The notes beneath the pieces were generated by a model that ran no database searches, was not told the origin of the DNA, and worked only from the letters and a program-made list of their open reading frames with translations. 64,000 nucleotides of DNA from assembly GCF_051903065.1 (NCBI RefSeq), contig NZ_CP178438.1, one strand, 5' to 3'. This DNA comes from Escherichia coli (GTDB lineage: Bacteria; Pseudomonadota; Gammaproteobacteria; Enterobacterales; Enterobacteriaceae). Positions 61,947-63,875 of this stretch are shown here, piece by piece. The translations under genes and the position numbers were made by a program. How positions within the stretch are numbered: position 1 is the stretch's first letter; every line of letters starts with the position of its first letter.

Positions 61947-62714
61947 TTATAGCGCCAGAACCGCCGTATTCAGCGTTTCTATCGGTGCCGGGCGTGAAAG
62001 AAACCAGCCTTGTGCGGCGAATGCGGGCGAGTTCTGAACATCACGCCACTCTTCCGGCGTTTCTACGCCCTCAACAATCACCCCGCGACAATAGCGATTC
62101 ATTAGATGTAAAAGCTGAGAAAAGAGTGTGCGGCCTTCCGGCGACTGACGCAGCATCACAAACAGTTCTCGCGCGATTTTGATGTAGTCATAACGCACTT
62201 CACTTAGTGCAGAGAAATTTGCCATCCCGGTACCAAAATCATCCAGCCACAGCGGGCCAAATTCACATATCGAGGCAAAGGTTGAATCTTTCGGCAGGCG
62301 GATGTGTTCCACCAGTTCGAAACGCAGCCAGGGAAGATCCTCAATCTGGCGCAGGATTTTTGGTTGCTGACGCAGGGCGATGAGCGTAGGGCCATCAATA
62401 TTGACCGATGCCAGCAGGCCGTGCTCTACAAAGAAGTCGGCTTTTTGCGCCAGCAAATCAATCTGCTCTTTCACAACCTCCATCCGATGGCTAACGGTGA
62501 TTTCAGTAAAATAGCGATCCGGCGGCAGGCGTTGCGAAGGGTTCAAGGGATGCGTGACCACCGTTAATAGCTCCACGGCCATTAACCGTCCGCATGTTTG
62601 ATAGATCGGCTGCCAGGTGTAAGCACGCTCACACTGCAACCAAAAACGCCGTTCCTGCAAGCTCTCGATGCTTGCTTCAGGGTTGCTTATTCGCTGGATA
62701 ACCTGCCTTATCAT
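61947..62714 (-). CDS. pdeH: c-di-GMP phosphodiesterase PdeH (YhjH), EAL domain
   Basis: Start MIRQVIQRISNPEA chosen because the sigma-28 promoter lies inside the longer ORF; 255 aa. Confidence 0.85.
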   Translation of the reverse strand: MIRQVIQRISNPEASIESLQERRFWLQCERAYTWQPIYQTCGRLMAVELLTVVTHPLNPSQRLPPDRYFTEITVSHRMEVVKEQIDLLAQKADFFVEHGLLASVNIDGPTLIALRQQPKILRQIEDLPWLRFELVEHIRLPKDSTFASICEFGPLWLDDFGTGMANFSALSEVRYDYIKIARELFVMLRQSPEGRTLFSQLLHLMNRYCRGVIVEGVETPEEWRDVQNSPAFAAQGWFLSRPAPIETLNTAVLAL

Positions 62715-62763
62715 CAAAGATGTCCTGTGTTTAAAAGTGATGCTGCCCGGACTCAACAAAGAT

Positions 62764-62790
62764 TATCGGCGCGCAAGGGCAGAACTTTAC
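62764..62790 (-). promoter_or_regulatory. Sigma-28 (FliA) class 3 flagellar promoter for pdeH
   Basis: Reverse strand TAAAGTTctgcccttgcgcGCCGATAA, matching TAAA-N15-GCCGATAA. Confidence 0.65.
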
Positions 62791-62860
62791 CGCCTGGCCG
62801 GGGTAAATTTCCCCTCTCCACAACGGAATCTTTCAGGAATACGTTCTGGCTCAAAAAAAT

Positions 62861-62879
62861 AATGGAACACTGTTTTAAT
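62861..62879. promoter_or_regulatory. KdgR operator candidate upstream of kdgK
   Basis: aatggaacactgttttaat, imperfect palindrome resembling the KdgR box. Confidence 0.45.
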
Positions 62880-62945
62880 ATGGTTGACCAGCAAACCACC
62901 ACAGCGCAAACTAACGCTAATTTTTTACAGATCAGGTTCACGACT

Positions 62946-63875
62946 ATGTCCAAAAAGATTGCCGTGATTGGCGAATGCATGATTGAGCTTTCCGAGAAAG
63001 GCGCGGACGTTAAGCGCGGTTTCGGCGGCGATACACTGAATACTTCCGTCTATATCGCCCGTCAGGTCGATCCTGCGGCATTAACTGTTCATTACGTAAC
63101 GGCGCTGGGAACGGACAGTTTTAGCCAGCAGATGCTGGACGCCTGGCACGGCGAGAACGTTGATACTTCCCTGACCCAACGGATGGAAAACCGTCTGCCG
63201 GGCCTTTACTACATTGAAACCGACAGCACCGGTGAACGTACGTTCTACTACTGGCGTAACGAAGCCGCTGCCAAATTCTGGCTGGAGAGCGAGCAGTCTG
63301 CGGCGATTTGTGCAGAGCTGGCGAATTTCGATTATCTCTACCTGAGCGGGATTAGCCTGGCGATCTTAAGCCCGACCAGCCGCGAAAAGCTGCTTTCCCT
63401 GCTGCGCGAATGCCGCGCCAACGGCGGAAAAGTGATTTTCGACAATAACTATCGTCCGCGCCTGTGGGCCAGCAAAGAAGAGACACAGCTGGTGTACCAA
63501 CAAATGCTGGAATGCACGGATATCGCCTTCCTGACGCTGGACGATGAAGACGCGCTGTGGGGTCAACAGCCGGTGGAAGACGTCATTGCGCGCACCCATA
63601 ACGCGGGCGTGAAAGAAGTGGTGGTGAAACGCGGGGCGGATTCTTGCCTGGTGTCCATTGCTGGCGAAGGGTTAGTGGATGTTCCGGCGGTGAAACTGCC
63701 GAAAGAAAAAGTGATCGATACCACCGCAGCTGGCGACTCTTTCAGTGCCGGTTATCTGGCGGTACGTTTGACGGGCGGCAGTGCGGAAAACGCAGCGAAA
63801 CGCGGGCACCTGACCGCAAGTACCGTTATTCAGTATCGCGGCGCGATTATCCCGCGTGAGGCGATGCCAGCGTAA
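62946..63875 (+). CDS. kdgK: 2-dehydro-3-deoxygluconokinase KdgK (PfkB family)
   Basis: Start MSKKIAVIGECMIELSEKG; 309 aa; upstream extension of the ORF overlaps pdeH and its promoter. Confidence 0.9.
   Translation: MSKKIAVIGECMIELSEKGADVKRGFGGDTLNTSVYIARQVDPAALTVHYVTALGTDSFSQQMLDAWHGENVDTSLTQRMENRLPGLYYIETDSTGERTFYYWRNEAAAKFWLESEQSAAICAELANFDYLYLSGISLAILSPTSREKLLSLLRECRANGGKVIFDNNYRPRLWASKEETQLVYQQMLECTDIAFLTLDDEDALWGQQPVEDVIARTHNAGVKEVVVKRGADSCLVSIAGEGLVDVPAVKLPKEKVIDTTAAGDSFSAGYLAVRLTGGSAENAAKRGHLTASTVIQYRGAIIPREAMPA

Follow-up and report, generated by a model that had tools for sequence, protein, structure and literature searches.

The divergent pdeH-kdgK control region of Escherichia coli: a FliA promoter, a putative KdgR operator and two start codons

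At the end of the E. coli DNA analysed here (64 kb in all, called the window below), pdeH (yhjH) and kdgK are read away from each other, and the locus raises the question of where each gene starts and what controls it. The mechanical open reading frame track overcalls both divergent genes, by 15 codons for pdeH and by 116 codons for kdgK. The region is very probably the already documented divergent pdeH-kdgK control region, with two independent elements that have been described before: a FliA (sigma-28) promoter for pdeH and a KdgR-type box before kdgK.

Methods

The FliA weight matrix was made from 21 published FliA ChIP-seq motifs, with yhjH left out, and its training sites span 13.5-29.6 bits. 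Conservation of the FliA promoter was read from 79 related loci, which are those that include the upstream region. The candidate kdgK promoter was obtained by a relaxed hexamer search combined with conservation.

Results and discussion

Genes and the kdgK start codon

The window end corresponds to the E. coli yhjG-pdeH<->kdgK-yhjJ locus, for which a match is present in 5422/5426 complete E. coli genomes. In the RefSeq annotation of a 100%-identical strain, pdeH lies at 61947-62714 on the minus strand (255 aa, c-di-GMP phosphodiesterase, start ATG 62714..62712) and kdgK at 62946-63875 on the plus strand (309 aa, 2-dehydro-3-deoxygluconokinase, start ATG 62946), and the K-12 annotation (b3525 for pdeH) agrees.

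The kdgK start is ATG 62946, where the databases already put it. The track runs this reading frame over 62598..63875 (425 aa), whereas the annotated gene occupies 62946..63875 (309 aa), a surplus of exactly 116 codons, which bears out the original prediction of an over-extension by about that number. The spurious extension (62598..62945, plus strand) begins at TTG 62598 and is not coding; it runs antisense to the 5' end of pdeH and then crosses the intergenic region, where its sequence drifts freely between genera and carries indels of lengths not divisible by three. NCBIfam model NF052444 aligns with KdgK residues 3-308 over model positions 1-303 of 303 (524 bits), and the N-terminus M-x(2-4)-K-IAVIGECMIE is kept in 76 loci, a few genera having an additional MT/MI codon pair.

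The FliA promoter of pdeH

A near-consensus FliA promoter had been placed on the minus strand at 62764-62790. The motif is present on that strand, and its actual position is 62763-62789, so the coordinates were off by one. The sequence there, TAAAGTTCTGCCCTTGCGCGCCGATAA, has one mismatch to TAAAGTTT-N11-GCCGATAA (15/16 specified bases, with the exact 11-nt spacer), and matches this good are expected 0.01 times by chance per 64-kb window. With the weight matrix, the pdeH site scored 23.6 bits, in the upper part of the span of the training sites, and the runner-up on either strand of the window scored 14.0 bits.

The -35 element TAAAGTTC (62782..62789, minus strand) is supported by the consensus match and the matrix, and its TAAAGTT is invariant in the 79 related loci. 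It is followed by the 11-nt spacer (62771..62781, minus strand) and the -10 element GCCGATAA (62763..62770, minus strand). Both hexamers are invariant in 79/79 loci, from Escherichia to Franconibacter, and the spacer is free to vary, with a per-column identity to the window base of about 20-70%. The -10 element ends 48 nt before the pdeH ATG, and the distance is about 45-49 nt in 78/79 loci, the sole exception being due to an insertion in the leader.

Experimental data on the K-12 orthologue, which differs from the window promoter by one spacer base, establish both FliA binding and fliA dependence of pdeH. ChIP-seq in K-12 gave a FliA peak at yhjH (FAT 67) on the identical motif, and yhjH RNA dropped from 511 to 2 when fliA was deleted (PMC4183435). 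A microarray gave a -9.6-fold change of yhjH in a fliA deletion, and pdeH::gfp is a standard reporter of FliA activity. The K-12 promoter yhjHp (RegulonDB ECK120009896; Fitzgerald et al. 2014, PMC4183435) is like the window promoter in locus, orientation, hexamers (TAAAGTTC / GCCGATAAT), distance to the ATG, 42-nt leader and annotated 255-aa product. It differs in the one spacer base (G in the window, A in K-12) and in one base just past the predicted transcription start (TTG in the window, TCG in K-12), and neither difference falls on a recognised element.

The pdeH start codon and leader

The original prediction had the promoter inside the longest pdeH reading frame and concluded that translation must begin at the internal Met at 62714. 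The first part needs correction: the promoter abuts this frame, because the TAA of the -10 element (62765..62763) closes the pdeH frame upstream as an in-frame stop. Position 62762 is the first of the open frame, and the longest ORF begins at TTG 62759, 4 nt downstream of the -10 element. The reasoning on the start codon survives this correction, and translation of pdeH starts at ATG 62714, in agreement with RefSeq, NCBIfam coverage, conservation of the ATG and Shine-Dalgarno sequence, and the RegulonDB yhjHp start. The PdeH equivalog model NF008617 (255 positions) aligns residues 1-254 of 255 with model positions 1-254 (460 bits, E 1.7e-138). The Shine-Dalgarno AGGA (62723..62726, minus strand, within ACAGGACA) was read from the sequence and lies 8 nt before the ATG. 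In an 18-genus alignment the ATG and ACAGGA are invariant, as is the plus-strand CCTGT (62724-62728) that corresponds to the Shine-Dalgarno sequence; among 75 unique sequences, CC 62724-62725 never varies, and conservation of the ATG and the flanking Shine-Dalgarno positions is about 90% or more.

The RegulonDB yhjHp start (evidence 'human inference'), listed in supplement file 5 of PMC4183435, maps to window position 62756, which is 7 nt after the -10 element and in the right orientation for pdeH. The supplements of Kim et al. 2012, checked for measured start sites, contain no yhjH or kdgK entry. With a start at about 62756, the pdeH 5' leader would extend over 62715..62756 (minus strand, 42 nt). 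In related loci this leader is variable in sequence and tolerates 1- and 2-nt indels. Shuffled versions of the E. coli leader fold better on average (mean -8.75 kcal/mol) than the leader itself (-4.8 kcal/mol; z +1.78). A conserved leader structure, with the conserved GAGTCC at +1 pairing with the Shine-Dalgarno GGAC, was also considered and was rejected, as RNAalifold over 18 genera returned 0 pairs.

It is hardly credible that pdeH is translated from an upstream in-frame TTG (62759, 62756 or 62717) instead of ATG 62714. The frame does hold these three TTG codons ahead of the ATG, and TTG 62717 sits 5 nt after AGGA, a workable spacing. However, the predicted transcription start at 62756 is 3' of the first base of TTG 62759, so that this codon is excluded and ATG 62714 stands, and TTG 62756 would be at the extreme 5' end of the mRNA. 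K-12 carries TCG instead of TTG at 62756-62754, and TTG 62717 is GAG, GAA or CAG in most other genera. Most other genera have no in-frame start between the upstream stop and the pdeH ATG, their leader indels are not multiples of three, and the equivalog model itself starts at ATG 62714.

In the proposed order of events, pdeH is a class 3 flagellar gene and sigma-28 RNA polymerase recognises TAAAGTTC-N11-GCCGATAA (62789..62763, minus strand). Transcription would begin about 7 nt downstream of the -10 element (about 62756) to give an unstructured 42-nt leader, and ribosomes initiate at ATG 62714 behind the AGGA. With pdeH driven by FliA, the main c-di-GMP phosphodiesterase is produced together with flagella.

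The KdgR-type box before kdgK

On the kdgK side, a KdgR-like operator had been proposed at 62861-62879. The sequence AATGGAACACTGTTTTAAT is found at exactly this place (plus strand, core TGGAACACTGTTTTA at 62863-62877), and the proposal holds up on the consensus match, the conserved half-sites and the repression of kdgK by KdgR, an IclR-family regulator. Compared with AATRAAAYRNYRTTTYATT, the box matches at 17/19 positions (2 mismatches; 0.17 expected per window), and compared with the IclR-type core TGRAACANTGTTYCA at 13/14 specified positions (1 mismatch; 0.06 expected). Against the 21-mer AAATGAAACAnTGTTTCATTT, which is the Dickeya consensus, it matches at only 15/20 positions, and a search of the window for this whole 21-mer, allowing up to 3 mismatches, gave no match. 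Judged by these pattern matches, the kdgK box is a putative degenerate member of the KdgR boxes, one that only the 19-mer or the core pattern picks up. Its half-sites GGAAC and GTTTTAA are conserved in 73-75/75 sequences, with 3 variable nucleotides in the centre, and 76 bp separate the centre of the box from the kdgK ATG downstream.

In K-12, boxes with the same motif are found upstream of kdgT (AAATAAAACAGCGTTTCAATT) and upstream of kduI (AAATAAAACAATGTTTCATTT and TGAAACACTGTTTCG), and a weaker version (TGAAACACCGGTCCA) lies inside edd, upstream of eda; the K-12 kdgT box TGAAACGCTGTTTTA closely resembles the window box. The gamma-proteobacterial KdgR operators (consensus AAATGAAACAnTGTTTCATTT, Rodionov et al. 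2000/2004 quoted in PMC5559549) are likewise palindromic, AT-rich 19-21-mers, and the operators of KdgR and IclR group 2 (core TGRAACA-N-TGTTYCA, PMC8222616) likewise have half-sites of the GAAAC/GTTTC type around a variable centre. Like known KdgR operators, the box stands in the promoter region of a gene of the KDG pathway whose repression is lost when KdgR is missing. It departs from them in having G for A on the left (GGAAC) and T for C on the right (GTTTTA), and both deviations are fixed across Enterobacteriaceae.

The kdgK mRNA is up in an E. coli kdgR deletion, and the text of that study calls kdgK a 'known target of KdgR' (PMC6958661). Salmonella kdgK is constitutive in a kdgR deletion and KDG-inducible in the wild type, and kdgK is overexpressed in a strain whose deletion spans kdgR. 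Neither an EMSA nor a footprint of E. coli KdgR on the kdgK box turned up in the literature searched. The assignment of the box as a KdgR operator is supported indirectly, and KdgR presumably binds it physically.

That the FliA-like and KdgR-like motifs are functionless chance matches has practically no probability left. A consensus match by itself is no proof of function, and the KdgR 19-mer match has 0.17 expected occurrences per window; the FliA match is expected just 0.01 times per window. Against chance, the two motifs stay unchanged in many genera, whereas the DNA separating the conserved blocks is variable, FliA binding in vivo with fliA dependence has been published (PMC4183435), which already refutes the idea for FliA, and kdgK is repressed by KdgR in E. 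coli and Salmonella.

PlaR at kdgK

The original prediction omitted PlaR (YiaJ) at the kdgK promoter region. PlaR is a second IclR-family repressor, and gSELEX lists kdgK as one of its targets (Shimada et al. 2019, PMC6958661). It is possible, though we consider it unlikely, that the box at 62861-62879 serves PlaR chiefly, or PlaR together with KdgR, and not KdgR alone. Besides the gSELEX result, the same authors note that the PlaR box ATnTGAAACnnnGTTCAnTT resembles that of KdgR and propose co-regulation (PMC6958661); the two boxes belong to the same palindrome family, and no other site in the intergenic region matches the PlaR box as well as the window box does. The match is mediocre, however, with 4 mismatches in 16 specified positions (just 12/16 shared), and the strongest PlaR site is plaR-yiaK, not kdgK (PMC6958661). 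Derepression of kdgK in the kdgR deletion is clear in the study that names it a known KdgR target (PMC6958661), deletion of kdgR alone suffices for constitutive kdgK in Salmonella, and the box is nearest to that of K-12 kdgT, a classical KdgR target. The preferred assignment remains a KdgR operator, with PlaR as a probable additional repressor.

The kdgK promoter and neighbouring conserved blocks

A strict scan of 62500-63100 for sigma-70 promoters and terminators found nothing. The best candidate from the relaxed search is a sigma-70 promoter at 62884..62912 on the plus strand, with -35 TTGACC (62884-62889), a 17-nt spacer and -10 CAAACT (62907-62912). This is the best hexamer pair (8/12), and it would start kdgK transcription at about 62919. 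The candidate hexamers are conserved, with T62885, G62886 and C62888 present in 75/75 sequences, A62908 in 74/75 and T62912 in 73/75.

A less favoured choice, which we consider improbable, is that the promoter uses the -10-like TAATAT (62876-62881) in the right arm of the box, so that the repressor would block the -10 directly. In TAATAT, position 2 is A and position 6 is T, the hexamer is about 92-100% conserved, and a repressor site over the -10 is the classical geometry. Its only -35 partner, however, is TCAAAA at a 19-nt spacer (7/12 in total), and its conservation is equally explained by its being an operator flank, whereas TTGACC and CA[A/C]ACT have no other visible reason to be conserved. 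With TTGACC/CAAACT retained as the better candidate, kdgK is transcribed in the direction opposite to pdeH, most likely from this weak sigma-70 promoter, and is repressed by KdgR, probably by its paralogue PlaR too. The palindromic box, to which the repressor presumably binds, abuts the candidate -35 hexamer at the place expected for DNA contacts of an UP element or alpha-CTD, and 2-keto-3-deoxygluconate releases KdgR.

Two further conserved features lie upstream of the box on the plus strand. The block GGAAYACG (GGAATACG in the window, 62836..62843) resembles an extra half-site, with A62838 in 75/75, A62839 in 71/75 and G62843 in 73/75 sequences, and stands alone 28 bp upstream of the box. 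The A-tract CAAAAAAA (62852..62859) is directly 5' of the box, with 65-75/75 sequences agreeing at every position, and the K-12 kdgT box is also preceded by a similar A-rich flank. A tandem second palindrome is expected for tetrameric IclR regulators (PMC8222616); visual inspection 18-22 bp away from the box revealed none, whether present here or conserved.

Together, the GGAAYACG half-site, A-tract, box and TTGACC form a continuously conserved stretch at 62836-62889, and the FliA promoter is about 70-110 bp from this block. On such a block, KdgR and PlaR might form a higher-order complex with a role beyond the repression of kdgK, for instance by also modulating the divergent FliA promoter, which, if true, would couple hexuronate/KDG sensing to c-di-GMP turnover and motility. 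We regard this as highly improbable. It is at odds with the freely variable DNA between the kdgK block and the FliA promoter, of which Pseudocitrobacter is without about 30 bp.

Significance

Promoter position and cross-genus footprinting settle both start codons, and the value of this result is mainly annotation hygiene. That FliA co-expresses pdeH with flagella and so keeps c-di-GMP low is textbook for E. coli and Salmonella, and that kdgK is kept off by KdgR until KDG appears is likewise already known biology.

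Locus identity and gene starts

The final 3 kb of the window were identified as the yhjG-pdeH<->kdgK-yhjJ locus of E. coli. A 601-bp query spanning the region matched 5422 of 5426 complete E. coli genomes, every match being chromosomal, with 100% identity to the query in strain ECNB21-M121, whose record places pdeH (yhjH, c-di-GMP phosphodiesterase) at 61947-62714 on the minus strand and kdgK (2-dehydro-3-deoxygluconokinase) at 62946-63875 on the plus strand. The layout is identical to that of K-12 b3525 and b3526. Both protein identities and both start codons were confirmed by NCBIfam equivalog models, with coverage of 1-254 of 255 for PdeH and 1-303 of 303, from protein residue 3 on, for KdgK. 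The kdgK ORF (62598-63875) encodes 425 aa vs the annotated 309 aa; the surplus is exactly 116 codons, as the original prediction of an ORF over-extended by about 116 codons had it. This extension runs antisense to the pdeH 5' end and then crosses freely drifting intergenic DNA, and the KdgK N-terminus M-x(2-4)-K-IAVIGECMIE is kept in 76 loci.

For comparison across genera, one genome per species was scanned for PdeH, giving 80 loci from Escherichia, Salmonella, and Citrobacter to Siccibacter, Atlantibacter, and Franconibacter, with the upstream region included in 79. kdgK was divergent from pdeH at a distance of about 230-245 bp in 76/79, the intergenic outliers being Pseudocitrobacter (about 205 bp) and Citrobacter amalonaticus S646 (locus L009, about 425 bp). 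E. coli NBRC 3301 (NZ_CP048439.1; L083:2448-4699) is among the few E. coli without the region: its pdeH and pdeK (yhjK), both EAL-domain genes, are fused into a pseudogene, and the deletion between them took out the pdeH 5' end, the entire intergenic region, kdgK, yhjJ, and dctA.

pdeH promoter and start codon

The minus-strand sequence TAAAGTTCTGCCCTTGCGCGCCGATAA (62763-62789) matches the FliA (sigma-28) consensus TAAAGTTT-N11-GCCGATAA with one mismatch, where 0.01 matches of such quality are expected per window. Using a FliA weight matrix trained on 21 ChIP-seq motifs from Fitzgerald et al. 2014 (PMC4183435), yhjH excluded, the site scored 23.6 bits, and the runner-up among all window positions on both strands scored 14.0 bits. 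The predicted motif was thereby recovered, at coordinates one base lower than first given. The sole further FliA-consensus match in the window, TAAAGAATATAATAGTTTCGCCGACAA at 9202-9228 (minus strand; 3 mismatches, 12.7 bits), is what chance would give (0.49 matches of that quality expected per window).

The promoter is a previously described element, from which the window copy differs by a single spacer base. In K-12, the motif TAAAGTTCTGCCCTTACGCGCCGATAAT lies beneath a FliA ChIP-seq peak (FAT 67), and deletion of fliA lowered yhjH RNA from 511 to 2 (PMC4183435); an earlier microarray gave -9.6-fold for yhjH, and the pdeH regulatory region is a standard reporter of sigma-FliA activity in published work. 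Every one of the 79 loci had TAAAGTT-N12-GCCGATAA, with differing spacers, and in 78 the motif stood about 45-49 nt upstream of the pdeH ATG. When 75 sequences were aligned and numbered by window position, conservation was 100% for the -10 element (62763-62770) and AACTTTA (62783-62789) and only about 20-70% for the spacer.

The promoter had been placed inside the longest pdeH ORF, so that translation would have to begin at the internal Met at 62714. This is not literally so: the in-frame upstream stop TAA (62765..62763) forms the final 3 bases of the -10 element, and the ORF starts 4 nt beyond it, at TTG 62759. The argument from promoter position holds despite this slip, since the RegulonDB start of yhjHp, a T 7 bases past GCCGATAA (supplement file 5, PMC4183435; evidence 'human inference' only), falls at 62756, and TTG 62759 is therefore absent from the mRNA. 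A literature search found no measured pdeH transcription start. The second codon past the in-frame stop is TTG in this strain and TCG in K-12.

The pdeH ATG and its Shine-Dalgarno sequence (CCTGT on the plus strand) were invariant in an 18-genus alignment and about 90% or more conserved in 75 sequences. The leader separating them from the promoter is variable, with 1- and 2-nt indels in related loci, and holds no other in-frame start in most genera; conserved secondary structure was looked for in this leader and none was found. From about +1 to +9, the initially transcribed region (62748-62757) reads G[A/T]CGAGTCC on the minus strand and is kept from one genus to another. In Citrobacter amalonaticus S646, the pdeH leader contains an insertion of ~190 bp (L009:1283-1472) between the conserved +1 block GACGAGTCC and the Shine-Dalgarno sequence, which leaves the FliA promoter intact and separated from the ATG by about 235 nt; apart from an imperfect direct repeat of 14 nt, nothing was found in the insertion.

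KdgR-like operator and probable kdgK promoter

The palindrome AATGGAACACTGTTTTAAT occupies 62861-62879, exactly where a KdgR operator had been predicted. It has 2 mismatches to AATRAAAYRNYRTTTYATT (0.17 expected per window), departs from the IclR group-2 core TGRAACANTGTTYCA at a single one of the 14 positions specified there (0.06 expected), and matches the Dickeya 21-mer at only 15/20 positions. The case for this putative operator is made by its conservation: GGAAC (62864-62868) and GTTTTAA (62872-62878) occurred in 73-75 of 75 sequences around a variable centre of 3 bases, the pattern expected of a dimer-bound palindrome. The same motif, TGAAACGCTGTTTTA, lies upstream of K-12 kdgT and is the nearest relative of the kdgK box; two copies precede K-12 kduI, and a weaker one lies upstream of eda, inside edd.

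KdgR repression of kdgK is already published and, with the conserved half-sites and the kdgT and kduI copies, gives indirect support to the predicted operator. Deleting kdgR raises kdgK mRNA in E. coli; in Salmonella, kdgK is induced by KDG in the wild type and expressed constitutively once kdgR is deleted; and kdgK is overexpressed in a strain whose deletion includes kdgR. No direct KdgR footprint on the box was found in the literature search. A second IclR-family repressor, PlaR (YiaJ), which the original prediction did not mention, has kdgK as a gSELEX target and a similar box (PMC6958661). A conserved GGAAYACG (62836-62843; A62838 in 75/75, G62843 in 73/75), 28 bp upstream of the half-site GGAAC, looks like a lone extra half-site.

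A strict scan found no sigma-70 promoter for kdgK. The best pair in a relaxed search was TTGACC (62884-62889) and CAAACT (62907-62912) with a 17-nt spacer (8/12), both hexamers being kept from genus to genus without another apparent reason; an alternative -10, TAATAT (62876-62881), which falls within the box's right arm, seems less likely. Transcription from the TTGACC/CAAACT pair would start near 62919. The box would then span about -59 to -41, directly adjoining the -35 and lying over the UP element position, alongside an invariant A-tract (62852-62859); this promoter assignment and operator geometry are probably correct. Upstream of K-12 kdgT (L084:4551-4576), an A-rich 5' flank, the box, and a TTGA-type hexamer (TTGATG) directly after the core follow one another in the local layout seen at kdgK, which hints at an operator-promoter geometry shared by the two genes.

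Both parts of the observation, the pdeH FliA promoter and the putative kdgK operator, are real and had been correctly interpreted, save for a coordinate that was off by one and a single slip over geometry. Both elements are already known from the literature and databases, and the anatomy of the locus is in no way unusual.
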